A stretch of DNA of 38,358 bases from a virus (taxonomy: Duplodnaviria > Heunggongvirae > Uroviricota > Caudoviricetes): the IMG/VR virus record IMGVR_UViG_3300045988_093140. One strand, 5' to 3'. Shown piece after piece: positions 22,328 through 38,358 of the stretch. The notes below the pieces were generated by a model. That model did no database searches and was not told where the DNA came from. It saw only the letters and a program-made list of their open reading frames with translations. How positions within the stretch are numbered: the stretch's first letter is position 1; each line of letters starts with the position of its first letter. Position numbers and translations under genes: made by a program.

Positions 22328-22369
22328 TTAGACCCTTTTACCACCCCGTCCAGAAGGGCGGGGTGTGCA

Positions 22370-22573
22370 TCAATGATGTGAACGCTCAACAGCGATAGTT
22401 TTCTGACAATGCTGGGCAATCTCTCGCGACATGTTGATGAGTCGTGAAACCTCACCAATATGTAGGCTGGCTTCTGGAGAAGCCAGGGTGACGCTAACCA
22501 GATCCAGAACGGCGTCAATATCTCTTAAATTTGAATCGAGTTGTTCAAGAGTTGATACGGCTGCTTCAGACAT
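22370..22573 (-). CDS. Hypothetical small protein
   Basis: 67 aa ORF. Confidence 0.4.
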   Translation of the reverse strand: MSEAAVSTLEQLDSNLRDIDAVLDLVSVTLASPEASLHIGEVSRLINMSREIAQHCQKTIAVERSHH

Positions 22574-22655
22574 TAAATCTCATACCATTTAACTAAAAAA
22601 GGTTATTTATACTGTATAAAATTACAGGGTAAAACTCAAACTTTACGGTCAATTT

Positions 22656-22898
22656 TCAATGAATTAACTGCGTAAACTGCTGTGTGGCCCGATACTTATG
22701 CTCTCTCCCTATGCCACGATCAGCTTTCTCAAGAAGTCCAGTACGGACAGCAGAATCAAGCATCCTTTTAACAATTCTGCTATTTAACCCAACATCAAAA
22801 GCAAGCATCGAAGCGAAAACAAACCCATCACCACCATCAGAAAAGCTCTTTTCGCTCCGTTTTCGTATCATTTCAAAAAGCAATGCCTTTTTATCCAT
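22656..22898 (-). CDS. Hypothetical small protein
   Basis: 80 aa ORF. Confidence 0.45.
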   Translation of the reverse strand: MDKKALLFEMIRKRSEKSFSDGGDGFVFASMLAFDVGLNSRIVKRMLDSAVRTGLLEKADRGIGREHKYRATQQFTQLIH

Positions 22899-22916
22899 TT
22901 ATCCCTCCGTGACCAG

Positions 22917-23243
22917 TCACGCTTTGAGCGCAAGTTTCAACCTCGTGGTTGTAAGGTGGCATGAGCCTTCGCCATCAAAAATGCATTCTGAAACAGGCAT
23001 TTTTTGACCACATCGCGGGCAAGTAGTAGATAGCTGCTTCTGCAGCTCCTTATAGTTTTTCCTGATCAGCAAACCAATGACTTCGTTCTCCGAATATGGA
23101 ACTCGCCCTGGTCTACGCAATACACAAATTTCCCCCAACATACGTAACTCGTCAGGTTCTAGAATCCAGTCCCGTCTTGATGTGCCTTCCTTCTTCAACC
23201 GTTCCCTGCGTCTCCTTTGCCGTTCTGCCGGTGTCAGCGCCAT
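22917..23243 (-). CDS. Hypothetical zinc-ribbon protein
   Basis: 108 aa, basic N-terminus, CPRCGQK...C...C motif. Confidence 0.5.
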   Translation of the reverse strand: MALTPAERQRRRRERLKKEGTSRRDWILEPDELRMLGEICVLRRPGRVPYSENEVIGLLIRKNYKELQKQLSTTCPRCGQKMPVSECIFDGEGSCHLTTTRLKLALKA

Positions 23244-23258
23244 AAATCCTCCTGAAAA

Positions 23259-23672
23259 TTACTTAACCCAATTAACTACACCGCCAGCGGCCACAACCGC
23301 CCTTTCACAGTCACGCTCATATCTCAAAGGTTGAAATACACCATCAATAAAATATTTATCTCCACCAAACGCTGCAGGAAGTGAAACAGAAAACTGAATA
23401 CGATTATCATCCGGCACCACCGGCAGTGGCTGGGCTACATATAATGACTGAACATACCAGCCCTTTGATAACCAACTGTCAGCAATGTTTTTACTCCGGG
23501 TTATTGCCGGAATACCTAAGCCATTGTCTGAATGCAGCCATGCCACCGGTTCTGCTTCCAGCGAGGCTAACGCTATTTCATAAGCCCGGCGCTCAATATT
23601 GTCTCTCACGTCCAGGCTGCCTATGCGCTCTTTGATTTCTTTAATCAGTTCTTTGTCGGTAAAAGTGCTCAT
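23259..23672 (-). CDS. Hypothetical phage protein, paralog A of a tandem pair
   Basis: ATG at 23672 with AAGGAG upstream; shares motif ASLEAEPVAW with the upstream neighbour. Confidence 0.6.
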   Translation of the reverse strand: MSTFTDKELIKEIKERIGSLDVRDNIERRAYEIALASLEAEPVAWLHSDNGLGIPAITRSKNIADSWLSKGWYVQSLYVAQPLPVVPDDNRIQFSVSLPAAFGGDKYFIDGVFQPLRYERDCERAVVAAGGVVNWVK

Positions 23673-23673
23673 A

Positions 23674-24123
23674 TCAATCTCCTTTGGTACCAATGTTTAC
23701 AGCCTGGCAAGCCTCTTTGAGCACCCAGTCAACAGCGTCTTTCCATGCTCCGGTTTCGACTGGCGGATTTTCACGCTTAACCTGTTCATAGAAGCGCACT
23801 GCTTTAATCAATCCTTCTGGTGTCAGTGGCACAGGCGGGGCAGTGAATAACGCCTGAATTTCATAGTTCGGTCTGTCGTTGCAATCCTCTTTTGTCGGTA
23901 CATATTTCCAGTCACCAACCCACGGCTCCCCCTGTGAGTCCGTAATGCCTTTTTTCACGTAGCGATATCGCCATGCCATCGGTTCTGCTTCCAGCGATGC
24001 CTGTGCGATACGAAACACATTGGCAAGCAGGCTGTCTGAGGATTGGTTATCGTGCGCCGGGTCGCTCAGGAAGCCATTGATGAATGATTTAATCTTCGAG
24101 TTTTCTCTGGTAATAGTGGTCAT
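23674..24123 (-). CDS. Hypothetical phage protein, paralog B of a tandem pair
   Basis: ATG at 24123 (MTTITRENSKIK...); motif ASLEAEPMAW. Confidence 0.6.
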   Translation of the reverse strand: MTTITRENSKIKSFINGFLSDPAHDNQSSDSLLANVFRIAQASLEAEPMAWRYRYVKKGITDSQGEPWVGDWKYVPTKEDCNDRPNYEIQALFTAPPVPLTPEGLIKAVRFYEQVKRENPPVETGAWKDAVDWVLKEACQAVNIGTKGD

Positions 24124-24124
24124 A

Positions 24125-24877
24125 TCACTCTCCTTTGCGAATCTCTGCGGCAAAGTCAGTCGCATGCTCACCGAGTAGTTTCCAGTTATCGCGTATATCA
24201 GATGCAAGCGACTGTTCGGATTTTGAGTTACATTTCTGTGCAAACATTTCCACCCCCTGCGCCCGCACTTCAGACAGGAAAGAGTCGGTGGCTGGGGTTT
24301 CGACATTAGGTCGAAGCTCATAATCACAAACTCTTTCAATCCATGGTGATACTCTGTCGCATTTCCTCTTCTTGCGTTCACCGACCTTGGTTGCCTGCTG
24401 AATAATTACCCCCCAGCAAATGCTTTCGACCTCTTCGCTCCATCCATCGCAAGCATCGCCTCTATAGTCGTCAATTGCAGCCTCAGCAGCAGCGATAGCC
24501 TCCTCAGCAGTTTTGTGACACTCGAAACTAAATTCAGAGCCATATGAGAAATACATAGCCCCGGCCTTCAGTCTTGCATTCTCCGCCGCCAGAGCCGCGC
24601 AACTGGCCTCCAGCTCTGCAATGCGTTTGCTTTGAGCCTCTCGTTCATCCAGCAGTGCCTGCACTACTTCAGGGTTGAAAGCTGCGATATAATGAGCGTT
24701 GTTCTCTGCGTTTTTCTGTCCGTCAAAGCCGGTCCATTTGATAACGTCTTCACATCGTTTATCACCGGGCGTATGCACTGCATACGTACCAGTACCCGGC
24801 GAAATAAATGCGACCCATTCACCCTGTGTTGCCTGTTTTGCTATCTCACGCAGTACCTGATAATTGATTTCACTCAC
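24125..24877 (-). CDS. Ead/Ea22-like protein (GTG start)
   Basis: GTG at 24877 preceded by AGGAGG; NYQVLREIAKQATQGEW motif and coiled-coil segment typical of Ea22-like proteins (recalled). Confidence 0.6.
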   Translation of the reverse strand: MSEINYQVLREIAKQATQGEWVAFISPGTGTYAVHTPGDKRCEDVIKWTGFDGQKNAENNAHYIAAFNPEVVQALLDEREAQSKRIAELEASCAALAAENARLKAGAMYFSYGSEFSFECHKTAEEAIAAAEAAIDDYRGDACDGWSEEVESICWGVIIQQATKVGERKKRKCDRVSPWIERVCDYELRPNVETPATDSFLSEVRAQGVEMFAQKCNSKSEQSLASDIRDNWKLLGEHATDFAAEIRKGE

Positions 24878-25296
24878 AGTACTACCTCCTGAAGATTTCC
24901 CTGATAAAACGCCAGCACACGCTGCATAACTTCGCTCTTCTGGCAATCGTGACAAATCATGTTCAAGCGCCTGTCGTAACGACGTATTTCTCCGTCAGGT
25001 AATGACCAGATAAGGTCTGGATCAACCACTACCGATTTCTTCGGCTTTACTCTTGATAGCTTTTTACGGGCGTTTTGCCAGTCCTTGCGTGCTTGTGCAG
25101 ACAGAAATATCCCGGAGCCAGAGATATACAAATCACCACTGGCAGCAAGCTCTCTTGATAAACGACTAACAGCACACCGGCTAATACCAGTTTCATCCGC
25201 AAGTTGCCTAACCGTTCCTCGTCCATTCAGGCGTACGAGTTCCACAATTTGTTTATTCAGTTCTTCCCTCTGTTCTGGTGTAAAAGCCTTTGCCAT
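24874..25296 (-). CDS. HTH-containing phage protein
   Basis: 140 aa, MAKAFTPEQ..., HTH-like VRQLADETGISRCAVSRL; AAGGAGA RBS. Confidence 0.6.
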   Translation of the reverse strand: MAKAFTPEQREELNKQIVELVRLNGRGTVRQLADETGISRCAVSRLSRELAASGDLYISGSGIFLSAQARKDWQNARKKLSRVKPKKSVVVDPDLIWSLPDGEIRRYDRRLNMICHDCQKSEVMQRVLAFYQGNLQEVVL

Positions 25297-25895
25297 TACG
25301 ATTCTCCTTGCCCTTTTACAAGACGGGAGAAAATTGCGGATACATATTTAGCCTGATGAATAGCATCAGCCAGGGCATTGTGTCGTTCGCCATCAAATGG
25401 CATATCTTTTTTAGGATTAAAACCAATAAACTGACCAAGATTAACGATTGTTCGAACATCCTGATCATTAAAATATTCCCACGGACAGGCTAAGCCAACG
25501 CGCTCATAAGCACCGCGTAAAATTACATTATCGAACGTTGCTCCATTTCCCCATACTTTCAATTTTTTTAAATTACATGCATGGCAAGTAATAAAGTGTG
25601 ATAATTCAAAAAGTGCATCCTTAATATCAAGGGCATCATTAGTACAAATTGCGGCTCTGGCTTCCTTGCTCTGTTTCAACCACCATAAAATGGTATCACC
25701 ATCGGCGACACCACCATTCAACATCGAGCTTCTGAGATTCACTGGCACATAAAAAGTAGGACCTAATTCCTCATTTTCTGGAGAAAAAAACACTGCCCCG
25801 ATAGAAACAATTGGAGCACATGTGTTAGTACCCATTGTTTCAAGGTCAATCATTACATCAGACCGTTTCCTGTCGTAAATAATCTGATTAGTCAC
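25296..25895 (-). CDS. DEDD-family 3'-5' exonuclease (GTG start, or ATG at 25853)
   Basis: IDLETMG N-terminal exonuclease motif and later H..ALAD motif; GAGGAG RBS before the GTG. Confidence 0.65.
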   Translation of the reverse strand: MTNQIIYDRKRSDVMIDLETMGTNTCAPIVSIGAVFFSPENEELGPTFYVPVNLRSSMLNGGVADGDTILWWLKQSKEARAAICTNDALDIKDALFELSHFITCHACNLKKLKVWGNGATFDNVILRGAYERVGLACPWEYFNDQDVRTIVNLGQFIGFNPKKDMPFDGERHNALADAIHQAKYVSAIFSRLVKGQGES

Positions 25896-25918
25896 GAATA
25901 ATTCTCCTCAACGTTTAT

Positions 25919-26122
25919 CTATACCCAAATTTTCTGTTGATATGTTCTGGATGGTTTTGGCGTTCTTTCTGATTCAGGTAAATGAACATAAACGCAATAT
26001 CCATCACCTAAAAAATCAGAACGAACAACCAGAACTTTCTTACCACGCCGCCGATAAGTATCTGAAAGACGCTCTGCTTCATCATGCGTCATCGGCCCCT
26101 GCTTAAATGGCGTTATTTTCAT
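25919..26122 (-). CDS. Hypothetical small protein (start uncertain)
   Basis: ORF-track start at 26146 falls inside the sopC-like palindrome; first ATG at 26122. Confidence 0.4.
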   Translation of the reverse strand: MKITPFKQGPMTHDEAERLSDTYRRRGKKVLVVRSDFLGDGYCVYVHLPESERTPKPSRTYQQKIWV

Positions 26123-26423
26123 TTTCTTGTGCGACCACGGTCGCACCCTCTCTGATTTCCAAGTAACGCTTAATCCAAAGATTTTCTATATGCTTATTAC
26201 CTGGCTGATTTGATAAATACCAATCGGCAATTACAGACTGCTTATTACTATCTGGTCGTGTCCTGTAACCACAAGTTGGACACCAGATAACATATTCATT
26301 TCTTACCCCCGAATACCTTAATTCTGGCTTCGACGGTTTCCTGAACATAACTTGTTTACAAAGGCAGAATGGCACTTCCTGCCCGATGGCGTTTGATGAT
26401 TTCACTGCGCTTCTCCGCCGCAT
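26103..26423 (-). CDS. Zinc-finger protein, possibly Lar-family restriction-alleviation-like (start uncertain)
   Basis: CLC...CPTCG cysteine pairs; family assignment from memory only. Confidence 0.4.
   Translation of the reverse strand: MRRRSAVKSSNAIGQEVPFCLCKQVMFRKPSKPELRYSGVRNEYVIWCPTCGYRTRPDSNKQSVIADWYLSNQPGNKHIENLWIKRYLEIREGATVVAQENENNAI
26129..26146. repeat. sopC-like 18-bp palindrome, copy 5, inside the 3' end of the zinc-finger ORF
   Basis: GTGCGACCACGGTCGCAC; encodes ATVVAQ in the ORF frame. Confidence 0.6.
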
Positions 26424-27066
26424 TTAATAATGCAGTTCGATTTAAGCTCAGACATCGCGACTTAATTAAAAGCCAGCGTTCTTTATAATCTTGTCTCCAG
26501 CTATCAATAGATATATTCAGCAGAAAACTCAGATGCCTGTCCTGTTCTCTCTCATCAACTGCCTCAGCACACGTAAGTTCTGATTTAACCTGCTGTGCCG
26601 CGTAATAAATCAATTTCCGCATGGCTTTTTTCGTGGAGGCCTTCATTTTTTTAAAGCCGCCCCCCGAATGAGCAACCAGAAAATCAAGCCATAACCACTG
26701 ACAAACAATCACATCATTGTTGTAATCTGGCTTGCATCCGTAGCAATAATAAAGCCAGGCTGATTCCTCGTTATTCAACTGACCAATAGCCCTGCGCCAG
26801 CTGGCGCTCTGAAAATCAATATCAGTGAGCAACATTGATGATTGTTTAAATGTTTTCCCCTGGTGGAATCTTACCGGCTCAGCAGGAACGGACACTTCGT
26901 ATGAGTTATCATCCCCCACACTGATTGACCGGACTGGTTTATTGTTAAACCGTCCTGATCTACCGAGACGCATCTGCTCAAGCTGGACCTCCAGAATGCC
27001 ACGCTGGCGATAATGAACATCAGCCAATGCCGTAGAGACGCAGCTGCGTATATACTCAAGCTCCAC
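26356..27066 (-). CDS. Early protein directly downstream of cro; possibly the late antiterminator Q by position (GTG start)
   Basis: GTG at 27066 with GGAGA RBS 9 nt upstream, 236 aa; assignment rests on position only. Confidence 0.35.
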   Translation of the reverse strand: MELEYIRSCVSTALADVHYRQRGILEVQLEQMRLGRSGRFNNKPVRSISVGDDNSYEVSVPAEPVRFHQGKTFKQSSMLLTDIDFQSASWRRAIGQLNNEESAWLYYCYGCKPDYNNDVIVCQWLWLDFLVAHSGGGFKKMKASTKKAMRKLIYYAAQQVKSELTCAEAVDEREQDRHLSFLLNISIDSWRQDYKERWLLIKSRCLSLNRTALLNAAEKRSEIIKRHRAGSAILPL

Positions 27067-27277
27067 GCTTACGACTCTCCTTAATCGACTGCTTTGCCCG
27101 CCGAGTTGTAAAGTCACTCTTCAGCTTATAAGCAGTACGAACTTCAATATCGCTTTGCCGCAATGAAGGAATCTCTCCAGCGGTTAACCATTGGTAAACA
27201 GCTCCGGGTGTTACACCTACCCCTGCCGCTGCTTTTTCTACACTGCCAAAGTGGCGAATAAGTTCTTCTGGTTTCAT
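27056..27277 (-). CDS. Cro-like HTH regulator
   Basis: From MKPEELIRHFGSVEKAAAGVGVTPGAVYQW... (73 aa); divergent from the CI-like gene. Confidence 0.7.
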   Translation of the reverse strand: MKPEELIRHFGSVEKAAAGVGVTPGAVYQWLTAGEIPSLRQSDIEVRTAYKLKSDFTTRRAKQSIKESRKRGA

Positions 27278-27306
27278 GTTGTTATTATAAACAATAAACA
27301 ACAATT

Positions 27307-27346
27307 AAAGCCAGCTATAATAAATAAATTTTATAGCCAGCTATAA
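27307..27346. promoter_or_regulatory. Immunity-region operators: two copies of AGCCAGCTATAA in the cro/cI divergent promoter region
   Basis: aaAGCCAGCTATAA at 27308-27321 and ttatAGCCAGCTATAA at 27331-27346, the second with 7-bp inverted arms TTATAGC/GCTATAA. Confidence 0.5.
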
Positions 27347-27368
27347 GAAGATCATTTATGATTAAGCT

Positions 27369-27965
27369 ATGAAAACACGAGGCGAACGACTGAAAGCACG
27401 CCGTTTAGAGATGAAGCTGACGTTGCGAGAAGTTGCTGAGGCTGTCGATATCTCTATTGCAGGCGTCCAAAACTTAGAACGTGGCGACGTAATGCCGTCA
27501 CTGGAGATAGGTATTGCCCTGGCTAAATGCTTACGCAAGCCAGTGCATTGGGTGCTGTATGGGACAGAATATGACCCTGATCGCATTCCTGTTATTGGCA
27601 CAACTGAAAGTGGACCTGATGAAGAGTGGAAGCCAGGACAGGTTCCAAATACTGAGCGATTCCTGCCATTCATCAGCCAGCGCAATACTGTTTATGCGTT
27701 AACTATCAGCAATCTTACGCAGGGAAACTATCAGCCAGGCGATTTTCTCCTGGTCGATTCTGCGCTGGAACTGGTCCCCGGCGAGGATGTTCTGGTTCGT
27801 GATACTGCAGGAAATATCACTATCCAGCGCCTGGCCCGTTTTGATGATGAAAATTACTATCTGGATGGAACAAACTCACAACGCGCCATCTTCAGGAAAA
27901 GCGATCTTGAATTTGTTCACCAAATAGTCGGAACGATCAAATCATTCATGGTTGAGGGTAGATGA
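27369..27965 (+). CDS. Prophage repressor, CI/LexA-like (HTH plus S24 peptidase domain)
   Basis: 198 aa; N-terminal HTH LTLREVAEAVDISIAGVQNLERG, C-terminal S24-like region. Confidence 0.8.
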   Translation: MKTRGERLKARRLEMKLTLREVAEAVDISIAGVQNLERGDVMPSLEIGIALAKCLRKPVHWVLYGTEYDPDRIPVIGTTESGPDEEWKPGQVPNTERFLPFISQRNTVYALTISNLTQGNYQPGDFLLVDSALELVPGEDVLVRDTAGNITIQRLARFDDENYYLDGTNSQRAIFRKSDLEFVHQIVGTIKSFMVEGR

Positions 27966-28060
27966 CTTAATACGGGGTTTATTGTTTGCTGTAAATCTGG
28001 TTTAATGCAGGGCATATGTTCTGTGGGTTGACTCAGGTTACAGCAGCAGAAAAAAGACGA

Positions 28061-28095
28061 AAAAAAACCCGAGTCGGCAAACTCGGGTCCTTTTC
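28061..28095 (+). terminator. Rho-independent terminator between repressor and repA
   Basis: A-run, hairpin CCCGAGT-cggcaa-ACTCGGG, then TCCTTTT. Confidence 0.5.
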
Positions 28096-28210
28096 AGGAA
28101 GCAGCCACAACAACGCGACAGATTCCGTCAATTCAAGATGCGTTTATTGTGGCTGCTCCTGCGGATTTTTTCAACCCGAAAAAACATAATTCGCATGGAA
28201 TGGCTAAAAA

Positions 28211-31200
28211 ATGACATTAAACGATTTCTATGCGGATCGCTTTGGCAGCGATCCGTTCTCGCTAATTGAAGCAGCACGGGATGAACTAACCGAGCTGGCA
28301 CAGATGGCTGGTATCAACTGGCCTGCCTGTTCCGACAACATCCAACTCAACCCTCGCGGGGGGGTTGAGCGTTACTCTTCATACAATAAAACATCTCCAG
28401 AAGCTCTCGAAAAGAGCCTGAAAGGACGCGTAGAAATTTACTCCAGGCTGGAACACAGCAAAGGGATTGATTACCCGTTCATTAACTTCGTCCATAAAGG
28501 CAGCGATGCTGGCTCATGGAGCGGTTTCTCCTTCCTGTTTTCTGAATATCGCCGTGAGCAACAACGGAATAATGCGACCGTGGTCGCACAACCGGAAGAA
28601 GAACGGGAAAGAATAGAACGTCAGGCCGAAGCACGTCGTCGCCGTGAAGAACAAAAACGAATTAATGACCTGAAAAACAACCAAATGGACCATGAACGTT
28701 TGCTGGGATGGCTGGCATTCCACAGCGCGTGGGAACATGCTCAGGCTGAAGACGGCTCATGGCCATATGCGATTAAAAAAGGTATTCGTGACGTTTTTAG
28801 TTCATGTGATGTGCGTCGCGTGACCAGTCACGACAGTGCGAAATGGAGCCGGGGGCCAACCACATATATGGCTATCCCTCTGGCTCACCTGGACGGTCGT
28901 TATGATGGTCGTATTGTGGGTTGGCAGCGAATCGACAAACAAGGTGGGAAATACCAGACCAGCGCAGTAACCAGCGGCGATTTCGTCGGTGCCTGCTTTG
29001 TTATCGGTGAGCTGAAAGGGGCGCAAAACATCGCTGTTACAGAAGGTTTTGCTACTGGTGCATCCATCTGGCTTGCCACGAAAAAAGATAAACGCTTTGA
29101 CGCTGTGGTTGTCGCTGTATCCGCTAACAACATGGTTCATGTTGTGGAACAACTGGTAAACATGTACCCGGCGGCAAAAATCACCTGCGCACTGGATAAT
29201 GACCGGAAATCTGCCACAGAAGGAAAAGGGAATACCGGCCTGCGGACTGGCTATGAAATCTTATCTAAATTCAACGATGTCCGCTGCGTCTACCCAACTT
29301 TTGAAGACGATCCGCAAATGGAGTGCAGTGACTTCAACGACCTGCACAAACTACGTGGACTTCGTGAAACAGCACGTCAACTATTCGCAACAGCAAACCG
29401 CCTGAAAACCGGTACTGATTTGCTATCTCTGACACTCAACCGCCTGAAGACAATTAAGCGGGATAACCGCCGTACTTTTGCCAAAGAGCTGCTGAGAGCG
29501 GTAGATATTGGCATGCTGACCTGTCCGGTTCCTAACAGCCCGTCAGATTTATTTAACATGTTCTGTATCGTTCTGCGTGAAATGGGGCTGGAAAATATCT
29601 ATCGCGCTACGGTAAAAGACCATATTGCCCGTCGCCTGAATAAAAAGTGCCGTATTGCCCAGGCTCCGCGCTCTTTCAGCGAACGCATAACTGATCCCAA
29701 TAAACGCCCTCAACATATCACCTATAAGCGTTTTGATACTTCGGTAATGACCGATGACGTCCTGAAGTACGTGCAATCACTACAGGGGATAGTCATCGTC
29801 CGTGCTGGTATGGGTTCCGGCAAATCTACTGGATTGTTACGACCGTTAATGCATAGCTCAGAACGTGGTATCTCTGTAGCTCACCGTGTTTCCCTTATTG
29901 GTGGTCTGTGGGAAATGATGACTGAAGGAAAAGGTGTAAAAGCCGATATCCTGCACTATCAGGACCCTGGCTATCAGGAAATGGCCCCATACGCCAGTAA
30001 ACTGACCATCTGCATAAACTCGATTGTTAAAAACTGCTGGCAACCGTTGATGCGCCAGCACGACTATTTTGGCTTTGACGAGGCAACACAAGGGCTACGT
30101 GCCGTTCTTTCCGGTCGGGCTATGGAAAACCCGGTGGCTGTATTCAATACGCTAATTGATGCGCTGGCCAGAACGGAACAACACCCAATCATGGTGGATG
30201 CTGATGCGAACGATCTGCTGGTTGACCTGGCTGAACTGGCTATGAAACGCCGCGAAGAACTCGGTTTACCCGCATGGCTGCAGATCCACGTAATTGAATT
30301 ACCTGTTGATGTTCGCAACCGCGAAACAGGTGAGCCAATCCGGGTTTTTTATACAGAAAAAGATCGCATTATGACCGAGGTGGTGAAAGCTGTATCGGAT
30401 GGCGAAAAAATTATGTTGGCCACCGACAGCTCCACCTTTGCAGAAGATGTGACCGCCACCCTGAGAATGCATTTTCCTGGTAAGAAATTTCTGTGTGTAA
30501 ACCAGAAAAACAAACCAGAGCCAGAAGTTGAAGCATTTACCAATCAACCGAAAAAGATGGTCAAAAAATACGACGGCCTGATTTATAGCCCGTCTATTTC
30601 ATCCGGCGTGTCGATTGAGCAAAAACATTTTGACCGTCATTTCGGCATGTTCTGTGGTGAAGTTGTACCCAGCGACGCAGTGCAAATGCTACGCCGCGAC
30701 CGTACAGCAAAAGAATTTATTATCGGCTTTGATAAAGCTCGCGCAAAACGTGAAACTGACCCGCAAAAAATAGAACGAGCATTCGCCCAGGCATTGCTTG
30801 CTACCGCAGGCATGAACGGTGAACTGACGGATGTCGTTTTCGATGGCGACCGTATATCAATGGGGGTGGCCAATACCGACTTTACCAGGATGAAAATTAA
30901 AGCAGCCGCAATTGAAGCGTCTGCGCGTAACGACTACGCCAGCAACATGATCTGCATCATGCACAGCGACGGTTATAAGGTATCGCCGCTGGCCACCGAT
31001 TATGCTGCGAATGATATCGGTAAAGATCTGCGTAAAGAAGCGCGGGATATTGTGTGGGAACAGACACTGGATCTGCATCTCAATACAGAAACTCCACAAG
31101 AATCAGAGCGTGAAGAACTGCTAAAAAAACGCGCGCTGACGCTTGAAGAACAGGCAAAACTTGTCCGCTGGGATATTGAGAACGAACTGAAACTACCGGT

Positions 31201-32206
31201 TGAAGAAGGCACGCTGAAATTCTATTTCGATGGTGCTCGAGACAAAGTTCGCCGCTATGAAACAATGCTTTTAGATGAGGTAACAGCTCGTCGTTACGAC
31301 CGGGAAGAAGCAGCCATCAATTTTACCTACGCATACCGTCAGGCGGGACAGTGGCAATATTTTGTAGTGACCGCGATGACTCGCGAGCAGGCTGATGATG
31401 TCTTTAAAACTAAATTCCCTGGAATAATCGACTACAAGGTAAAAGCTACTCCTACTGTTGAAGTCGGGGCGCGCGGTTTCTATGCGCTTAAATCAGCAAC
31501 TCTCCGGCAGTACTTTATCGACTGCGGTATCAACCCTGAGACTATGACCGGCGAGGCGACTCAGGAGCGTCTCAAATTCGCTCGAGATAACCTCATGACA
31601 GCCGAACGCCGTGACCTGTTGAATAACGTTCTGCACATTGGTGGTTTTATGACGCCAAAAGGGAAGCCTAAAGTGCCGGAAGCGTTGTTTAAAAACATTT
31701 GCGACTCTCTTGGCCTTAAAACAGGTAAACGTCGTGGCAGAGACGGCGATAAGCGTCCAACCTTGCGTTTTGTTGAGCCTGAATCAGCGGCATTTATGCT
31801 GGATATTCTTGCTCAGCGTCAGAAAGATGGCCTAACCCTGAAAACGCGCAAAGCCGAGAAGACCGCCATCGAAATGGATCGCGATTTGGATCTCAATATA
31901 TATATGGATGATAAAACGCGATCCACAAATGAGCAGGTTCAAAACGCCCCTCATTCAGTAATTTCTGAGGCTTTGGCAGTGTTGCCGGTGGCTGTACCTG
32001 AGTCCTGGGCTATGAGTGCGCTTTCCTGTGAGGAGCTGGCCACTATGTCATCATGGTCATCAGCCAGCATAGCTATGACGTTTGCATCTCTGTACCTAAC
32101 AGAGTTCATGGATCACTTGTCCAGTAATGAACTGCGGCGGTTACGTGAATATATTACCGGGAATAGCCCATGCAGCTACGAAGAGCAGGGCGCTTTCTAT
32201 GGGTAA
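28211..32206 (+). CDS. repA: Multifunctional replication protein, primase (Toprim) plus P-loop helicase; N15 RepA-like
   Basis: 1331 aa; Toprim motifs VTEGFATGASIW and CALDNDRKS; Walker A GMGSGKST and Walker B FGFDEAT. Confidence 0.8.
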   Translation: MTLNDFYADRFGSDPFSLIEAARDELTELAQMAGINWPACSDNIQLNPRGGVERYSSYNKTSPEALEKSLKGRVEIYSRLEHSKGIDYPFINFVHKGSDAGSWSGFSFLFSEYRREQQRNNATVVAQPEEERERIERQAEARRRREEQKRINDLKNNQMDHERLLGWLAFHSAWEHAQAEDGSWPYAIKKGIRDVFSSCDVRRVTSHDSAKWSRGPTTYMAIPLAHLDGRYDGRIVGWQRIDKQGGKYQTSAVTSGDFVGACFVIGELKGAQNIAVTEGFATGASIWLATKKDKRFDAVVVAVSANNMVHVVEQLVNMYPAAKITCALDNDRKSATEGKGNTGLRTGYEILSKFNDVRCVYPTFEDDPQMECSDFNDLHKLRGLRETARQLFATANRLKTGTDLLSLTLNRLKTIKRDNRRTFAKELLRAVDIGMLTCPVPNSPSDLFNMFCIVLREMGLENIYRATVKDHIARRLNKKCRIAQAPRSFSERITDPNKRPQHITYKRFDTSVMTDDVLKYVQSLQGIVIVRAGMGSGKSTGLLRPLMHSSERGISVAHRVSLIGGLWEMMTEGKGVKADILHYQDPGYQEMAPYASKLTICINSIVKNCWQPLMRQHDYFGFDEATQGLRAVLSGRAMENPVAVFNTLIDALARTEQHPIMVDADANDLLVDLAELAMKRREELGLPAWLQIHVIELPVDVRNRETGEPIRVFYTEKDRIMTEVVKAVSDGEKIMLATDSSTFAEDVTATLRMHFPGKKFLCVNQKNKPEPEVEAFTNQPKKMVKKYDGLIYSPSISSGVSIEQKHFDRHFGMFCGEVVPSDAVQMLRRDRTAKEFIIGFDKARAKRETDPQKIERAFAQALLATAGMNGELTDVVFDGDRISMGVANTDFTRMKIKAAAIEASARNDYASNMICIMHSDGYKVSPLATDYAANDIGKDLRKEARDIVWEQTLDLHLNTETPQESEREELLKKRALTLEEQAKLVRWDIENELKLPVEEGTLKFYFDGARDKVRRYETMLLDEVTARRYDREEAAINFTYAYRQAGQWQYFVVTAMTREQADDVFKTKFPGIIDYKVKATPTVEVGARGFYALKSATLRQYFIDCGINPETMTGEATQERLKFARDNLMTAERRDLLNNVLHIGGFMTPKGKPKVPEALFKNICDSLGLKTGKRRGRDGDKRPTLRFVEPESAAFMLDILAQRQKDGLTLKTRKAEKTAIEMDRDLDLNIYMDDKTRSTNEQVQNAPHSVISEALAVLPVAVPESWAMSALSCEELATMSSWSSASIAMTFASLYLTEFMDHLSSNELRRLREYITGNSPCSYEEQGAFYG
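28572..28589. repeat. sopC-like palindrome, copy 6 (one outer mismatch), inside repA coding sequence
   Basis: aTGCGACCGTGGTCGCAC; encodes ATVVAQ in RepA. Confidence 0.55.
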
Positions 32207-32264
32207 TCAGTGGATATTATCGTATGTGGAAATCGTGATTTTTCGGTGAACGGGGAGTAAAAAT

Positions 32265-32594
32265 ATGTCTACTACTGCATTTTTGGACAAACTTGATTAC
32301 CGTCAGCTGAAGTTCTGCCGGGATGAATGCGATCGACGCATTAAGGCTATTCAGGAAGAAGAGAAGAAAGTTGCCTGGGAGATCACTGATGGTGGGATTA
32401 ATTTGGGTTGGTTCAGGACAGAAAACTACGTGAAAGCGGCTGAGCGTTTAGCTTCTTTAGCTTCTGAATTGTGGGAGGAGGAGCCAGATAAGGAACACCC
32501 ATCTACCCATTTGGGGCTTAATCTGGCAATTGAGGGGCATCATTTACCATTATCAGAGTATAACGCTTTGTTTGCTGATGGTGAGTGGGGTTAA
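32265..32594 (+). CDS. Hypothetical protein
   Basis: 109 aa ORF, ATG preceded by GGGGAG. Confidence 0.5.
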   Translation: MSTTAFLDKLDYRQLKFCRDECDRRIKAIQEEEKKVAWEITDGGINLGWFRTENYVKAAERLASLASELWEEEPDKEHPSTHLGLNLAIEGHHLPLSEYNALFADGEWG

Positions 32595-32596
32595 AA

Positions 32597-32992
32597 ATGG
32601 CTGTTCAATCATACAAATACGAATCCCCTTTGGATAAGGGATACATTCGTATCAAGTTAAGTCGTTCTCAGCATAAGGCTATTTTTAAGGTAAGGAAAAT
32701 TCGCATATTGGATGCGTATGCGTATTACTACAACGGTGAAAATGTTGTTGTTGAACACTTTCTTGCACGATGGTTTGTAGCTCTGATTTTTGTCCCTCTC
32801 CTGTTAATTGGTACTTTTGTGGATGGTTTTCCTAGTACATGGCGGGAGATAAAGAAAGGCCTATTCCCGCGTAAGTACGGCAGATTTTCGCAAGATAGCT
32901 GGCGAGTTATACCTGGTAAACATTCTGTAGATGAGCAACCGATTGTTGATTACTGGTTGAAGTATATGGTTGATACTCATAAAGCCGACTAA
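32597..32992 (+). CDS. Hypothetical membrane protein
   Basis: Start at ATG 32597 (MAVQSYKYE...); hydrophobic segment WFVALIFVPLLLIGTFV. Confidence 0.5.
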   Translation: MAVQSYKYESPLDKGYIRIKLSRSQHKAIFKVRKIRILDAYAYYYNGENVVVEHFLARWFVALIFVPLLLIGTFVDGFPSTWREIKKGLFPRKYGRFSQDSWRVIPGKHSVDEQPIVDYWLKYMVDTHKAD

Positions 32993-33119
32993 GTGCGCGG
33001 CATATTAAATGTTTATATATTGTTAATTTTACTTCACATTAAGCACACACTGTATTGATATACTCATACAATATGAAGGCTAAATATGTATGTTTTGCTT
33101 TTAAGGTGATGGAGATTTT

Positions 33120-33476
33120 ATGAAAGTAATTAGCATAAAAATCATTTTGATTTTATCAATTATTGCTCTTGCTATTGTATTTTTCTGGCCTGAATCTAAT
33201 AAAGGCCCAGAGTGCTATAAGGTTAGTGATGAACAGGCAAGAGAATTTGTAAAAAATGACTTTTTGAAAAAAATAACGCGTTGGAATAACGATGTACAAC
33301 TTCTCGGTACAGAAGCCCCAAAAATTACGTGGGAAAAGATTGAAAGAAGCTTAACAGATGTTAAAGATGAAAAAACGCTTCTCGTCCCATTTAAAGCCGA
33401 AGGCCCGGAAGGTAAGAGAATGTATTATGGAATGTACCATTGCAAGGAAGGTTATGTTGAATATGCAAATGATTGA
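33120..33476 (+). CDS. cmi: Colicin M immunity protein
   Basis: 118 aa, N-terminal TM anchor, recognised as Cmi from the translation; convergent with cma. Confidence 0.85.
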   Translation: MKVISIKIILILSIIALAIVFFWPESNKGPECYKVSDEQAREFVKNDFLKKITRWNNDVQLLGTEAPKITWEKIERSLTDVKDEKTLLVPFKAEGPEGKRMYYGMYHCKEGYVEYAND

Positions 33477-33498
33477 TACATCGGTATAAAGACTGCAT

Positions 33499-33526
33499 AA
33501 AAAAGGCCGGAATCCCGGCCTTTTTA
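33499..33526. terminator. Bidirectional rho-independent terminator between convergent cmi and cma
   Basis: AAAAAA-GGCCGG-aatc-CCGGCC-TTTTT. Confidence 0.65.
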
Positions 33527-34342
33527 TTATCGCTTGCCACTTTCTTTAATGTGAATTTCGCCAGGAAGTAGTATCTGATACTCTTTACCAGAGAACATCG
33601 CCCCGAGCCTTGTAAGAGACTCTCCGATTACGCCACGATGAGTGCTGGCATTGAAGTCATACTTGTCGTTATACGAGCGAACAACGCCATTATAGGTCCA
33701 TGAGCCATTAGCGGAGACAGTTAAAGTACCTTCTGTTTTCAGCGTGATATTACCAAGATATGCGCCGGTAATAACATTATAATCGCCAGTGGCGTGTGTG
33801 AATTTTGTAGAAATAGGGAATGTGCCTACTACACCAGATTTTACAATATCTCTTATCTGATTAATTTTCATCGGAGAAATTTTGAGACCAATATTTGCGA
33901 TATTAACGCTTCGGTCTGCACCATTACCCCATAAATAGTGTGCAAGCGCCACAATTGGTGTTGTGACATTACCGCTCATTTGTTTCATATTCATTGAGCG
34001 ATAGTCATATTTATTTGGCGCAGGTTTAGCTAAGTGGTAGGCGTCATAAACACTTATTCCGCGGTGAAGGATAAGGTTTCTGTCAGCGTTACAGAAGTAG
34101 GCAATATTTGTTGACATAATTTGTAATGTCAGGGGATCGCTGGCACCGTGTTTTTTGATGTAGTCCTCAAGCTGAGTTAGAGCCTGAATACACATGTTTG
34201 GGCTCTGGAAAAAGCTGTAAACCACCTGGACTAAAAGGGGGCCAGAACCAGGCACGTGTGGTGCTGAGAGAGAAAATGCGCCATTACCATAACTCGGTAA
34301 GTTAGTTGATGGTGATGGAGCTGTCACAACGATAGTATCCAT
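33527..34342 (-). CDS. cma: Colicin M (lipid II-cleaving bacteriocin)
   Basis: 271 aa; recognised as colicin M along the whole length, including N-terminal TonB-box-like DTIVV and the C-terminal region with HATGDYNVITGAY. Confidence 0.85.
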   Translation of the reverse strand: MDTIVVTAPSPSTNLPSYGNGAFSLSAPHVPGSGPLLVQVVYSFFQSPNMCIQALTQLEDYIKKHGASDPLTLQIMSTNIAYFCNADRNLILHRGISVYDAYHLAKPAPNKYDYRSMNMKQMSGNVTTPIVALAHYLWGNGADRSVNIANIGLKISPMKINQIRDIVKSGVVGTFPISTKFTHATGDYNVITGAYLGNITLKTEGTLTVSANGSWTYNGVVRSYNDKYDFNASTHRGVIGESLTRLGAMFSGKEYQILLPGEIHIKESGKR

Positions 34343-34403
34343 ATCAAAAACCCTTATAAGTTAATGAAATAACAGACATACAGGTTTAATCGCTGCATAA
34401 ACA

Positions 34404-34419
34404 CTGTGTTTTTATACAG
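34404..34419. promoter_or_regulatory. LexA (SOS) box upstream of cma
   Basis: CTGTGTTTTTATACAG fits CTGT-N8-ACAG, 62-77 bp upstream of the cma start and overlapping a plausible promoter. Confidence 0.55.
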
Positions 34420-34554
34420 CAAAATCAGGATAGCCCGAGCCGCCCCATTAGTAAAGTAAAGTGTAAATAACATTTATATTTTAATGTAATAAAAATGCTA
34501 CGTTTTGTTGTATATTATTCTAATGGTAGTTCAGGCGGGGCCGACTTCGGTCGG

Positions 34555-34606
34555 GCCGGTTTCTCCGTTTACCGGTATTGCGAACCCTGCCTGGGCTATC
34601 ACCATA
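34555..34606 (+). repeat. c4-like repeat, copy 1, upstream of icd/ant (candidate antisense-RNA or target element)
   Basis: gccggtttctccgtttaccggtattgcgaaccctgcctgggctatcaccata, preceded by hairpin CCGAC-TTCG-GTCGG. Confidence 0.35.
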
Positions 34607-34867
34607 ATATCGTTTATCTTCTAATCATTTGTTTAAGCAAACTATAAAAACACCTATCCCCGTGACTGGTCACAGGGTAAAATGTCTTTGCAAATTATTG
34701 ACGTGTGCGTCGTTTTGACGGTAAAGTTATTCCGCTGCGGTAAATCCCGTAGCCGGGCGTAGGAACCCGAGTAAATGAAGCGCACAACACGCGCCAGCGT
34801 GTTTTTTTGTGTGTAAAATCTGCGTACACCAAATTTATGGTGGCTCAGATGGGGCAGCTTTTAGCTG

Positions 34868-34920
34868 GCCGGTTTCTTCGTTTACCGGTATTCCTACCCC
34901 CGTCTGGGCTACCGCCATAT
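34868..34920 (+). repeat. c4-like repeat, copy 2
   Basis: gccggtttcttcgtttaccggtattcctacccccgtctgggctaccgccatat; 5' 25 nt identical to copy 1 except one base. Confidence 0.35.
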
Positions 34921-34971
34921 AGAGCGTAGGAACTCTGGTGGTAGCACGACCAATTAAACGGAGTGCATACC

Positions 34972-35136
34972 ATGTTCAAATTCAAATTTGCGGCAGTCGT
35001 TCGCACAGACAAAAAGTCCCACATTCATCATCTTTCCACCATCGCGTCATCTGAACGGGAAGCTCGTCGCCAGTTCGCCAGCCGGTTTGTCCTGGTATTG
35101 TCTGCCCGTATTCCGGTGCGCGAGGTGGCAGTATGA
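34972..35136 (+). CDS. Icd-like small protein (host cell-division inhibitor family); not in the ORF track
   Basis: 54 codons, GGAG RBS; MFKFKFAAVVRTDKKSHIHHLSTIASSEREARRQFASRFVLVLSARIPVREVAV; stop overlaps the next start (ATGA). Confidence 0.55.
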   Translation: MFKFKFAAVVRTDKKSHIHHLSTIASSEREARRQFASRFVLVLSARIPVREVAV

Positions 35137-35363
35137 ATCAGGTAAAAATGAACACTGTTGGCCTGCTGGAATCGTTGGATGAACGTCTGGCTCAGGTCTA
35201 TGCGCTCGTATCATCAGCCCATCGGACAGTATCCAGCTGTGAGGCGTCGATTTATCTATCAGAAGCCGGGAAGCTTCTTCAAATCGCGTGTGAGTTAACT
35301 CATGAAGCACAGGGGTATTCCGCGTCGCTCTCGTCGCAATTGCTGGGTAAGGAGGCTGAATGA
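35133..35363 (+). CDS. Hypothetical small protein in the icd/ant operon
   Basis: 76 aa, start and stop overlap neighbours. Confidence 0.5.
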   Translation: MNQVKMNTVGLLESLDERLAQVYALVSSAHRTVSSCEASIYLSEAGKLLQIACELTHEAQGYSASLSSQLLGKEAE

Positions 35364-36136
35364 GCGCGTTAGCAGTCTTTTCCTTTCAGGAAGAGCATCA
35401 GGTTCGTGTAGTGATGATTAACGGCGAACCGTGGTTTGTTGCATCTGATGTGTGTATGGCGGCGGGTATTGATTCTACGGCCACCAGAAAGTTGGATGAG
35501 GACGAAAAGGGTCTGCATTTAATGCAGACCCCTGGTGGATACCAGAATGTTTCAATCATCAACGAGTCAGGTCTATACACCCTGATCCTCCGCTGCCGTG
35601 ACGCTGTTAAACCGGGCACGATTGCATGGCGGTTTCGTAAATGGGTAACGAACGAGGTCCTGCCCTCTATTCGCAAGAATGGAGAGTACGTTTACGTCGA
35701 GCCTGAGCCAATGCGAGCAGCAGAGCCGTTGAACTGGAGGCAGAAGGAGTATCTGCGAGGGCTGATTAACGATATTGCACAAAGTTTTCAGTATCGAAAT
35801 GCCTGGATTAGCGGTGTATGGTTGGCTTTGCGTCGGGCGTGTCGTAATCCATCCCCGAACCCCATAACGGTTGATGATTTACCAGCAATTACGGCAGAAC
35901 TGCGCCGGATTTTAACGGCTGCTGAGTCGGCATTGGGGAACATGCGCACGTATGAACGAGAGTTGTTGCGTGATGTTGTTCGTGGGGGTAGGCGGAGTAT
36001 GTCGTGTGGTGATTTGCCCATCACCGATATTAACTCTGATCTGGAAAAGGCGTTACCCGCGCATTTTGAACTGGCAGTTCAAAAACTTGAGCAGTTATCC
36101 GCGCAGCTAAAGCCAGCAGAAATCACCAATAAATAG
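35360..36136 (+). CDS. Antirepressor, Bro-N/KilA-N domain
   Basis: 258 aa; N-terminal Bro-N-like FQEEHQVRVVMINGEPWFVASDVCMAAGI. Confidence 0.75.
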   Translation: MSALAVFSFQEEHQVRVVMINGEPWFVASDVCMAAGIDSTATRKLDEDEKGLHLMQTPGGYQNVSIINESGLYTLILRCRDAVKPGTIAWRFRKWVTNEVLPSIRKNGEYVYVEPEPMRAAEPLNWRQKEYLRGLINDIAQSFQYRNAWISGVWLALRRACRNPSPNPITVDDLPAITAELRRILTAAESALGNMRTYERELLRDVVRGGRRSMSCGDLPITDINSDLEKALPAHFELAVQKLEQLSAQLKPAEITNK

Positions 36137-36307
36137 GGTTGGCCAGCCCGAATTTATGCCCTTCTCAGAGAAGGGAAGCTTCGCAGTCGGGGCGGTGATG
36201 TCTGTGGTTGCAGCCGCGTTTCCTCCGTTACTTCTGCCCTTTGCAGGGGGTGGGCGAGGCAGGCCACACAACAAGGCACCGATAATTCGGTGCCTTTACC
36301 GTATGCT

Positions 36308-38203
36308 TTATCCGAAATATGTCAGCCATGCTAACTGCATTGCTGACATAGGGCTGTTTGCACTGCCGGACCACGCATAATTCTGGCCATTATAATGAAA
36401 CTCAACAACGTATGAGCCATCACCAATATTTCTCACAGGCTTAAATACCGGCTTAGATACAGGTGAAGAAGGCGCTGGCGGTTGCTGTTCTTCTACGCTC
36501 TCTTCCTCTTCCTCTTCCTCTATCTCAATTTCGTCGTCATCCAGATCGTCATCCTCTGATAATTCATCCGTCTGTTCAGGTATTGCTTCCAGCTCTTCTT
36601 CGTCAGGCATAACGATTTCTGGAGTATCTATTTTCAGCTGCCATTGTCCATTTTCGCCAACAAATTGCCCCAGAGCATCAGCAGCAAATTCCAGGTATCG
36701 ACTAATCATTGTTGGGCTAAATTTGAATGCTCTTAGAGTGCTGTTCGTGATTTTTATAGAGGGGTCCTGTTCTACCAGCTGCTTAACTGTGTTATGCAGA
36801 CGAACCCCGGCATCTCCTCTGGCGAATCCAGGCATTTCGTCATCAAGCTGCTGCAATGCTTCCAGCCTGGTATTTTCGTTTCCAGTATTTGGCCTCCATG
36901 TCTTTGAGAAGTTGGCCAGCTTGAATTGTTTATAGTGTAATTGAGTGTTTTCATCGTCATGGCCTAAAATTTCCATAAAGAAAACATCTTCATCTACATT
37001 TTTCCAACGGGGATCTACGCGGAAAAACATTTCATACGCAATACGGGCATAAATAGCACGACTATCTTTATAAACACGGCGATTGTCATTGAAAAATGAT
37101 TTAACCCATGGATTAAAAGCCTTTGCTAATATGGCATTAATACGTCCGTTTTCAGACCGCGTGTCGTTATTTCCGTAACCCATAACGACTTCATCAAAAT
37201 CAGATGCTGCTGGGCATGAGCGAAGTACATTTATTAGATAAACAAACGTTTTTGCTTCGCATAATGTATATATTTTTCTGGTTACATCATCAGTAGTTCT
37301 TTTTTTCGCCTGACCTAAAAAATCAACGGTATACTTACCAGAGACAGTAAATGTACCTTGATACATAATCTCAATCATTCGTCTTCCTGATAATGCGGCA
37401 AGAGCAAATGCCAAAGGAGCCATACCTGAACGAGTGTTTAGATTATTTAATGTAGCAGGGCTATTTATAATATCGTAAATAGCTTGCATATAATTAGGGT
37501 AGTCAATGACTACTACGTTACGTTTCTTATTGTGTAGTACGTCCGCCCATCGTTGCTGGATAGATGCGCGTTCGGCAGGGCTTAGTTTGAGATGATAGAG
37601 AATCTCATGGTTAACCTTTAACTGATTCAACTCCTCAAGCAAGGCTGACCCTTGCTGTAGTAATTTATATAAATAATCGCGCTTATCTTTCCAATTATCG
37701 CCAGTTAAATCAGAAATGGCAAATTGCCATTCTTTATATTTATTTGATAACTTTATTAACTTATTATTATTTTTATTATCACCAATTCTGATATTAGATA
37801 AATCTTCGGACAGATGAATAATTAATTTTAATTTTGCCTGTAAAGATGACATTCTACGGCGAATATCGGCAGCAGGTAGAGAGAGCCATGACAATAGCTC
37901 CTCATTATATAAAGGATATTTTTCAGATAGTCGATGTATATTTTTTTCAAAACTATGATGAAGTTTATCATCAAACCGTTTTCTGGCCCTGCTCATATAG
38001 GAGTTGAATGTGTTGGCTGTAATTCTCTTTTCTAATCCTTTTCCCCTAAACTTTCGCTTATCATTAAATAATGTATTTTTAAATTTTAATGCAACGGCCT
38101 TTATTTTTTTTGTTTTCTCTCCTTGAGGACGGTCAGAGTTATCTATTGACTCAACATCGCTAACAAGTGAGTTTATTAATTCACCGATTTTTACTTTGCT
38201 CAT
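36308..38203 (-). CDS. telN: Protelomerase (telomere resolvase), N15 TelN-like
   Basis: 631 aa, recognised as TelN end to end (MSKVKIGELIN...RKFRGKGLEKRITANTFN...RVYKDSRAIYARIAYEMFF..., acidic C-terminal linker); AGGAGA RBS. Confidence 0.9.
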   Translation of the reverse strand: MSKVKIGELINSLVSDVESIDNSDRPQGEKTKKIKAVALKFKNTLFNDKRKFRGKGLEKRITANTFNSYMSRARKRFDDKLHHSFEKNIHRLSEKYPLYNEELLSWLSLPAADIRRRMSSLQAKLKLIIHLSEDLSNIRIGDNKNNNKLIKLSNKYKEWQFAISDLTGDNWKDKRDYLYKLLQQGSALLEELNQLKVNHEILYHLKLSPAERASIQQRWADVLHNKKRNVVVIDYPNYMQAIYDIINSPATLNNLNTRSGMAPLAFALAALSGRRMIEIMYQGTFTVSGKYTVDFLGQAKKRTTDDVTRKIYTLCEAKTFVYLINVLRSCPAASDFDEVVMGYGNNDTRSENGRINAILAKAFNPWVKSFFNDNRRVYKDSRAIYARIAYEMFFRVDPRWKNVDEDVFFMEILGHDDENTQLHYKQFKLANFSKTWRPNTGNENTRLEALQQLDDEMPGFARGDAGVRLHNTVKQLVEQDPSIKITNSTLRAFKFSPTMISRYLEFAADALGQFVGENGQWQLKIDTPEIVMPDEEELEAIPEQTDELSEDDDLDDDEIEIEEEEEEESVEEQQPPAPSSPVSKPVFKPVRNIGDGSYVVEFHYNGQNYAWSGSANSPMSAMQLAWLTYFG

Positions 38204-38309
38204 CTTTCTTCTCCTGATTATCTGCTCAGATTATCGTAACACAATTTAAGAATAAAATAACCAATACCTAGTTAACTTACTCACAAAGTATCAGAACACA
38301 ATATCAGAC

Positions 38310-38358
38310 CTGTCTCTTATACACATCTCCGAGCCCACGAGACTCGACGTCATCTCGT
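38310..38358. other. Untrimmed Illumina Nextera (Tn5) adapter, not biological sequence
   Basis: CTGTCTCTTATACACATCTCCGAGCCCACGAGAC followed by index-like bases. Confidence 0.85.

Follow-up and report, generated by a model that had tools for sequence, protein, structure and literature searches.

The 38,358-nt virus record IMGVR_UViG_3300045988_093140 of IMG/VR, analysed here over its full length and referred to below as the window, is almost certainly a short-read contig holding about 38 of the 46-47 kb of an N15-group Escherichia telomere phage, written in the plasmid-prophage orientation. Telomere phages are viruses kept as linear plasmids with hairpin ends. With the same high confidence, the contig is read as running from inside the tail gene J, via the lambda head and tail module, the cos site, the lysis genes and the early genes, to a point no more than 85 bp from the right hairpin telomere, with sequencing adapter appended. 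By homology, the genes for N15 maintenance and control are present in the N15 order, including those for TelN, RepA, CB, Cro and Q, the C4-icd-antA-antB operon, an AntC homologue with its LexA box, and SopB-type palindromes. Homology and context show this predicted gene set to be complete except for sopAB and the telomere core, both located beyond the limits of the window. Between repA and the anti-immunity operon immA, the cargo slot is occupied by a pair of genes, cma and cmi, for a colicin M-type bacteriocin and its immunity protein. With J cut off after 553 bp at the left edge, the window includes neither the distal tail genes nor sopAB and the left telomere site telL; sopAB was found in the phage PhiR46_1 and in two contigs carrying cma (L008 and L011). 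The element is a lambda-bodied telomere phage of the N15 group, and the group is already known, mosaics of lambda and N15 type having been described in phage-plasmids of Escherichia and Shigella (bioRxiv 10.1101/2025.09.12.675607).

The closest relative, PhiR46_1 (PV340565), is colinear with the entire window, with 96.4% identity across 34.4 kb in blastn. Its record lists 64 features, including the telL and telR sites, ParAB and structural genes under lambda names; no paper naming this phage was found in the open-access literature. PhiR46_1 shares with the element the same lambda module, TelN, RepA and CB, but differs in four segments, 23399-24883, 32985-34522, 35512-36246 and the adapter tail. 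At 32985-34522, which is absent from PhiR46_1 by blastn, the element carries cma, cmi and an extra C4 gene whereas PhiR46_1 has a small gene annotated 'Spackle', and at 35512-36246 the element has a full-length antB in contrast to a 165-bp stub in PhiR46_1. For the region from telN to cB (27369-38309), dozens of related records were detected at about 95% identity, including the phages YDC107_1 and PhiR46_1 and plasmids of E. coli, Shigella (S. sonnei among them), E. fergusonii and E. albertii, some being linear plasmids such as pCAVP367-48. Many of these matches stop 40-100 bp from the end of the matched record.

The element clearly works like N15 (Ravinvirus N15, AF064539), with which it shares the right-arm order of cos, lysis genes, antC, Q, cro, cB, repA, small genes, C4/icd/antA/antB, telN and telomere, together with the CB operator core, the SopB-type palindromes, the LexA box before antC and, as read in the identical contig L016, the telO core. 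In blastn, window 18126-38255 corresponds to N15 44498-24942 and window 3915-15546 to N15 11965-365, forming one colinear series; the circular permutation seen in this alignment follows from comparing a prophage-form with a virion-form sequence. The mean nucleotide identity is 73%, over 24.0 of the 38.4 kb only. N15 lacks the bacteriocin cassette and has one C4 gene and four palindromes, whereas the element has the cassette, two C4 genes and six palindromes; the structural module is of lambda type in the element, with the structural genes of N15 being no more than 68-77% identical to it in blastn. The overall nucleotide similarity to N15, roughly estimated from this incomplete genome, is about 46%, and by this estimate the element would not fall in the genus Ravinvirus, if the practice of the International Committee on Taxonomy of Viruses is, as we assume, to set a genus at about 70% nucleotide similarity over the genome.

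The gene for the protelomerase or telomere resolvase, telN (36308-38203, minus strand), is intact and encodes 631 residues. All four domains, TelK_N, TelK_muzzle, ResT-TelK_cat and TelK_stirrup, were matched in Pfam with E-values from 1e-24 to 9e-50, and residues 1-536 align with the crystal chain of the phiKO2 protelomerase TelK in the Protein Data Bank (PDB) entry 2v6e (E 3e-290). N15 TelN (gp29), also of 631 residues, is 77% identical, and Tyr424 lies within the conserved motif LHYKQF. Because TelN is full length and Tyr424 is conserved, telN is no pseudogene, a possibility that the first-pass annotation of this DNA had named as one that would refute its reading.

Beyond telN, the proximal 106 bp of the right-arm telomere region, tos (38204-38309), could be aligned with N15, PhiR46_1, pG749_3 and the metagenome contig L016. 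The last genuine base is 38309, 106 bp beyond the telN start codon. The remaining 49 bases (38310-38358), composed of CTGTCTCTTATACACATCTCCGAGCCCACGAGAC, the index TCGACGTC and ATCTCGT, are an artefact which we take to be read-through into an Illumina Nextera adapter with its index. Matches to the 49 bases occur at the ends of phage records that are unrelated and come from many hosts; adapter read-through explains the matches, and those public records presumably share the contamination. What looks like the sequence end in the window was created by the library, and the telomere tip lies 85 bp beyond the last genuine base. The telomere resolution palindrome telRL, which had been proposed as a feature to be located, was searched for in the window and not found, the sequence stopping 85 bp short of it with adapter in its place.

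The missing stretch is provided by L016, which is 100% identical to window 23527-38309 (14.8 kb) and extends 85 bp further. Its extension beyond 38309 reaches the palindrome, read as TAATCAGTACATAATTCCCCATTATACGC and GCGTATAATGGGG on the two sides of the centre, and this centre is 191 bp from the telN start codon versus 192 bp in N15. The telO core CCATTATACGCGCGTATAATGG is identical in L016 and N15. Read-through of hairpins, in the form of telN-to-telN inverted duplications, was observed in the related contigs L009 and L010 and in pG749_3, and the sopA-telRL-telN junction is carried by L008 and L011. These inverted-duplication and junction contigs are indirect but consistent in suggesting hairpin telomeres in the relatives. 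The record pG749_3 (NZ_CP014491.1, 62.6 kb), labelled circular in PLSDB, contains its telN-to-telN inverted duplication at 2777-3160, centred on the telomere palindrome; it is an assembly artefact of hairpin read-through and no real circle. The query also matches twice in each of five further records (CP088738, CP088810, CP088562, CP019258 and CP088430; 75-92 kb), which may represent the same artefact.

The replication initiator gene repA (28211-32206, plus strand) encodes a multidomain primase/helicase of 1331 residues, which is 76% identical to N15 gp37 over 1319 residues. The protein scored 258.9 bits against the NCBIfam model CyRepA1 (cut-off 200) and falls in PHROG 'replication' and primase families. 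Its Toprim and P-loop assignment, made previously from the letters alone, agrees with a weak Pfam match to Toprim (Toprim_3) and the Walker A motif GMGSGKS. We infer that the origin probably lies within the repA gene, which we take to be its place in N15.

Six 14-bp palindromes of the form GCGACC(AC/GT)GGTCGC start at 16138, 17824, 18045, 21080, 26131 and 28574, the last being inside repA. All six are perfect matches to GCGACC-NN-GGTCGC, for which the chance expectation is 1.46 even with two mismatches allowed. One of the four such palindromes of N15 also lies inside repA, and the counterpart inside repA of phiKO2 is annotated 'putative plasmid partitioning site'. The dispersed palindromes can be read as putative centromere sites of the SopB type. 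The F-type sopC palindrome GGGACC-NN-GGTCCC was tried as the centromere sequence and gave no match in the window; the phiKO2/N15-type sequence fits instead.

In the primary immunity region immB, the prophage repressor gene cB (27369-27965, plus strand) encodes 198 residues with a helix-turn-helix (HTH) and an S24-like C-terminal domain, as detected by Pfam HTH_3 and a weak match to Peptidase_S24, and the product is 78% identical to N15 CB (gp38). With these identities to the N15 proteins and the table of open reading frames (ORFs), the previous assignments of telN, repA and the repressor all held at their coordinates. On the lytic side, both on the minus strand, are the genes for the antiterminator Q (26356-27117 as the longest ORF; Pfam Phage_antiter_Q, E 5e-84) and Cro (27056-27304; Pfam P22_Cro, E 3e-22), in the same order as N15 genes 40 and 39. 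The CB operator repeats TAAAGCCAGCTATA and TATAGCCAGCTATA are located between cro and cB (27306-27345), and the operator core is nearly identical to the sequence in the N15 feature 'CB prophage repressor operator'. Between cB and repA there is a stem-loop terminator, AAAAAAAACCCGAGTCGGCAAACTCGGGTCCTTTT (28060-28095), one base off the terminator region of N15.

The secondary immunity operon immA (34734-36136, plus strand) was delineated by Rfam, NCBIfam, PHROG and Pfam. It is composed of an isrK-like leader (34734-34807; Rfam), a C4/CA RNA gene (34833-34919; Rfam C4), referred to below as the resident copy or copy 2, icd (34972-35136; NCBIfam Icd-like), antA (35133-35363; PHROG antirepressor) and antB (35360-36136; Pfam Bro-N). 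The arrangement of isrK and then C4 before icd is shared by N15, window 34619-38255 matching N15 28604-24942, and the composition of immA has been described for N15 (PMC4488713).

Induction of N15 is started by the antirepressor AntC under SOS control (PMC4488713). A candidate for its gene was found on the minus strand at 22370-22573, coding for 67 residues, with the LexA box CTGTATAAAATTACAG upstream at 22612-22627. The product matches the PHROG antirepressor family and is 56% identical to that of an unannotated N15 ORF (39592-39831), located behind the LexA box of N15 at 39564-39579. This 67-residue ORF behind a LexA box is taken to be antC on the basis of these similarities. AntA and the antC-like product belong to the same PHROG family, and the two look like paralogues. 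In total, three LexA boxes (CTGT-N8-ACAG) were detected in the window versus 0.42 expected by chance.

The morphogenesis block (1-15864, minus strand) starts at the left edge with the 5' 553 bp of J and continues with I, K, L, M, H, T/G, V, U, Z, FII, FI, E, D, C/Nu3, B, W, A and Nu1. Window 1-16000 aligns in full (100%) with lambda (J02459) 54-16057 at 96.7% identity, in agreement with the previous statement that the head and tail genes follow lambda, and the block is colinear with PhiR46_1 35902-19813, where the genes bear the same lambda names. The cos site (16042-16053, minus strand) consists of a cosN-like core, GGGCGGAAGGCG, followed by a lambda-like cosB region, of which the flank CGCGGGTTTTCGCTATTTATGAAAATTTTCCGGTTTAAGGCG matches what we take to be lambda cosB. 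The exact 12-mer of the lambda cohesive end, GGGCGGCGACCT, was not found in the window, the core here being GGGCGGAAGGCG. The lysis cassette for holin, lysozyme and Rz (18433-19660, minus strand) was assigned from its ORFs and from its colinearity, at 96.5%, with PhiR46_1 16187-17420, annotated as holin, lysozyme R and Rz.

The cargo between repA and the immA operon had been left unidentified; it is the colicin M and immunity cassette. The cma-like gene (33527-34342, minus strand) encodes a lipid II-degrading bacteriocin of 271 residues, of which residues 4-271 match Pfam Colicin_M at full length (E 8e-145) and which matches the colicin M structure 2xmx in PDB (E 9e-174). It is 92.3% identical to the colicin M of pColBM, with 21 substitutions. 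The motif D226-K-Y-D-F-N-A-S-T-H-R, which we take to be the catalytic motif of colicin M, the roles of its residues being assumed likewise, is retained, with D226, Y228, D229, H235 and R236 all kept. Four of the 21 substitutions fall within residues 2-7, presumably the TonB-box region, which read DTIVVT here and ETLTVH in pColBM. Convergent with cma is the cmi-like gene (33120-33476, plus strand), encoding an immunity protein of 118 residues with an N-terminal membrane anchor and a YebF-like fold. The protein matches the colicin M immunity protein structures 4aeq and 2xgl (E 1e-55) as well as Pfam YebF, and is 83.1% identical to the Cmi of pColBM, a markedly greater divergence than that of the toxin.

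A LexA box, CTGT-N8-ACAG, is located at 34404-34419, 62 bp upstream of the cma start codon; the homology to pColBM, ending at about 34376, does not reach it. The 176-bp region containing this box is 98-100% conserved in all of the 10 related cma-bearing loci. Adjoining the cma upstream region is an extra gene for a C4-type antisense RNA, copy 1 (34519-34606, plus strand; Rfam RF01695, 77.5 bits against a gathering score of 45), which is 77% identical to the resident copy. Copy 1 is present in 10/10 cma loci, whereas only one C4 gene was found in each of N15, PhiR46_1, pCAVP367-48, pG749_3 and the Klebsiella plasmid. The extra copy may represent a recombination scar of cassette capture, or it may add an immunity specificity.

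The pair of cma and cmi in pColBM shows the same convergent arrangement, with 86% nucleotide identity over 1.27 kb. The surroundings are different: in pColBM, cma is located downstream from cba-cbi and lacks a LexA box in the 240 bp upstream, whereas the element has no colicin B, a private LexA box and an adjacent C4 gene. As for the position within the phage, the term telocin locus has been given to a variable locus in which Klebsiella telomere phages such as NAR688 and its relatives have a bacteriocin and immunity cassette, the telocin (Byers et al. 2025, PMC12042878). The five telocins described are pore-forming, pesticin-like or colicin Z-like, all from Klebsiella and killing Klebsiella (PMC12042878). 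These telocins occupy the same slot as cma and cmi, between the small genes past repA and the C4/icd/ant operon, and on the Klebsiella plasmid pKP18-238-2 the gene for a pore-forming telocin lies on the strand opposite to repA with a LexA box just upstream, like cma here. None of the Klebsiella telocins is of the colicin M type, unlike the toxin of the element, which belongs to Escherichia, and the backbone is only about 77% identical.

In a search of PLSDB, INPHARED and 5,426 complete E. coli genomes, no cma was detected in an N15-like context; nowhere was a junction-spanning query covered to at least 80%, and the cma matches were only about 86% identical and located on pColBM-type plasmids. 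An exact-protein look-up in draft assemblies, on the other hand, detected 61 contigs with the exact toxin sequence and 67 with that of the immunity protein. In all of the 10 places examined the surroundings were N15-like, repA lying to one side and icd, ant and telN to the other, and contigs with exactly the same proteins end at the telomere. The immunity protein is labelled by NCBI only as 'YebF family' or 'hypothetical'. In the open-access literature, no paper combining colicin M and protelomerase was found. In a survey covering N15-like elements from Escherichia, Shigella and Salmonella, no homologue of a telocin was reported (bioRxiv 10.1101/2025.09.12.675607), and a cassette of this type appears to be unreported in the literature searched. 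We tentatively propose, at somewhat less than an even chance for the proposal as a whole, that N15-type telomere phages of Escherichia carry an undescribed class of telocin, namely a lipid II phosphatase of the colicin M type with a diverged Cmi, maybe of new immunity specificity, its own LexA box and a second C4 gene, for which phage lysis could supply the release function missing from colicin M operons, the toxin gene being spread by infection and not by conjugation.

Three other explanations of the whole sequence were considered. The first-pass annotation correctly recognized N15-type genes joined to a lambda block but regarded the order of telN and repA, both on the same side of the sequence end, as differing from that of N15, which would make the element a novel rearranged derivative with the two genes brought to the same side of the telomere. 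This explanation has practically no probability left, being refuted by the N15 annotation and the colinear blastn matches. On N15 itself, telRL (24775-24830) is followed by telN (24995-26890), genes 30-36 (27064-29874), repA (29886-33860), cB (34109-34717), cro and Q, telN and repA thus being on the same side with genes 30-36 in between, and the same series is present here in reverse. PhiR46_1, pCAVP367-48, pG749_3 and Klebsiella pKP18-238-2 all show the same order of telN and repA, and blastn is colinear throughout. It is also very improbable that the contig is a chimera assembled from a lambda prophage and a fragment of an N15-like plasmid, or a chromosomal lambdoid prophage with captured telN and repA. 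A short-read assembler could in principle join repeats, given a structural block 96.7% identical to lambda, and J, within which the window is cut off on the left, occurs repeatedly among lambdoid prophages. The join across cos and the overall layout, however, recur in independently sequenced complete phage and plasmid records such as PhiR46_1, and some of these records are long-read assemblies reading through the hairpin. Neither an integrase nor a chromosomal flank was found, the contigs with the exact proteins ending, as above, at the telomere. The absence of integrase, also claimed before, was supported by Pfam scans of 30 ORFs, consisting of the main ORFs of 27056-38203 and 20 ORFs of 16346-27117, and including all ORFs of at least 100 residues on the minus (coding) strand except for the lysis genes, which map to annotated genes of PhiR46_1; none of the 64 features of PhiR46_1 is an integrase.

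A domesticated or defective linear plasmid, kept by TelN, RepA and Sop and for the sake of its colicin but making no infectious particles, is unlikely, even though it is the most plausible of the three. The distal tail genes are outside the window, from which their integrity cannot be judged, and a colicin cargo is a selective reason to retain a plasmid without phage function. Against this, the ORFs seen for structure, lysis and regulation are all full length and in colinear order with PhiR46_1, a deposited phage genome, and neither insertion sequence (IS) elements nor frameshifts were seen in the window. Several points weigh against our own identification as a telomere phage with a colicin cassette. 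The telRL palindrome, telL and sopAB are not within the window, and for this reason linearity and partition are deduced from identical or near-identical sequences elsewhere. Virion formation and colicin activity are predictions from the genes; the origin inside repA, the mechanism of TelN and the coupling of colicin release to lysis come from the N15 literature and the sequence context; and the LexA boxes are consensus matches only. No sigma-70 promoter could be placed in the cma upstream region, the scan of the cargo region being no richer than shuffled sequence, and we therefore claim no cma promoter beyond the LexA box.

Besides the systems described above, a number of other genes were detected. 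Past repA there are two small conserved genes with no function assigned (32265-32992, plus strand; PHROGs 10878 and 15458), the first being related to N15 gene 35 (window 32290-32590 versus N15 29601-29304, 68%). Just beyond cos, a stretch with a low GC content of 41-44% (16363-18098) contains two conserved phage ORFs (PHROG 3054 and PHROG 2571), for which Pfam and PADLOC gave no match. A type II-like DNA methyltransferase is encoded at 19757-20878 and a DEDDh (Rv2179c-like) 3'-5' exonuclease at 25296-25895; in a survey of 2025, predicted DEDDh proteins were found in 7/7 N15-like contigs and putative type II restriction-modification systems in 6/7 (bioRxiv 10.1101/2025.09.12.675607). At 21729-22327, a pair of Gp49-like and HTH proteins, resembling a toxin-antitoxin system of the HigB/HigA type, is colinear with the N15 stretch of genes 49 and 48 and may represent a plasmid-stabilisation module. 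PADLOC, applied to ten ORFs including those without Pfam match, yielded the methyltransferase and, apart from it, no more than weak matches of the HTH and Gp49 types. At 23399-24883, in place of the corresponding PhiR46_1 segment, the element has an alternative early-gene module, encoding an Ead/Ea22-like protein and proteins of PHROG 660/5117, and this module is also present in contigs L008-L011 and L016. The tRNA scan detected no tRNA gene in the window.

Based on the biology of N15, the mode of maintenance and induction can also be predicted. After infection, the cos ends would join, and TelN would cut the telRL palindrome and seal each end as a covalently closed hairpin. RepA would then start bidirectional replication from an origin in its own gene, TelN resolving the replicated telomere junctions, while SopAB, encoded past the left edge of the window, would segregate the plasmid via the dispersed centromere sites. 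In the lysogen, CB would hold the lytic genes off; upon DNA damage, LexA would leave the antC promoter and AntC would inactivate CB. The same SOS signal that induces the phage may derepress cma, the lipid II-degrading bacteriocin, which the phage holin and endolysin could release although it has no lysis gene of its own. Cmi would protect the sister lysogens.

As a whole, the element belongs to phage-plasmids that are already known and fairly common in Escherichia and Shigella, its supposed oddity being the normal layout of N15 and the end of the contig being adapter and no telomere. Since several public 'circular' records of 62-91 kb appear to be artefacts of hairpin read-through, the lengths and topologies given in databases call for caution. 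More interesting, if modestly so, is the telocin cassette of the colicin M type. Recurring on 61 contigs, it would bring E. coli and a new mechanism of killing into the telocin concept and, if this is true, colicin M would gain a phage route of spread and release.

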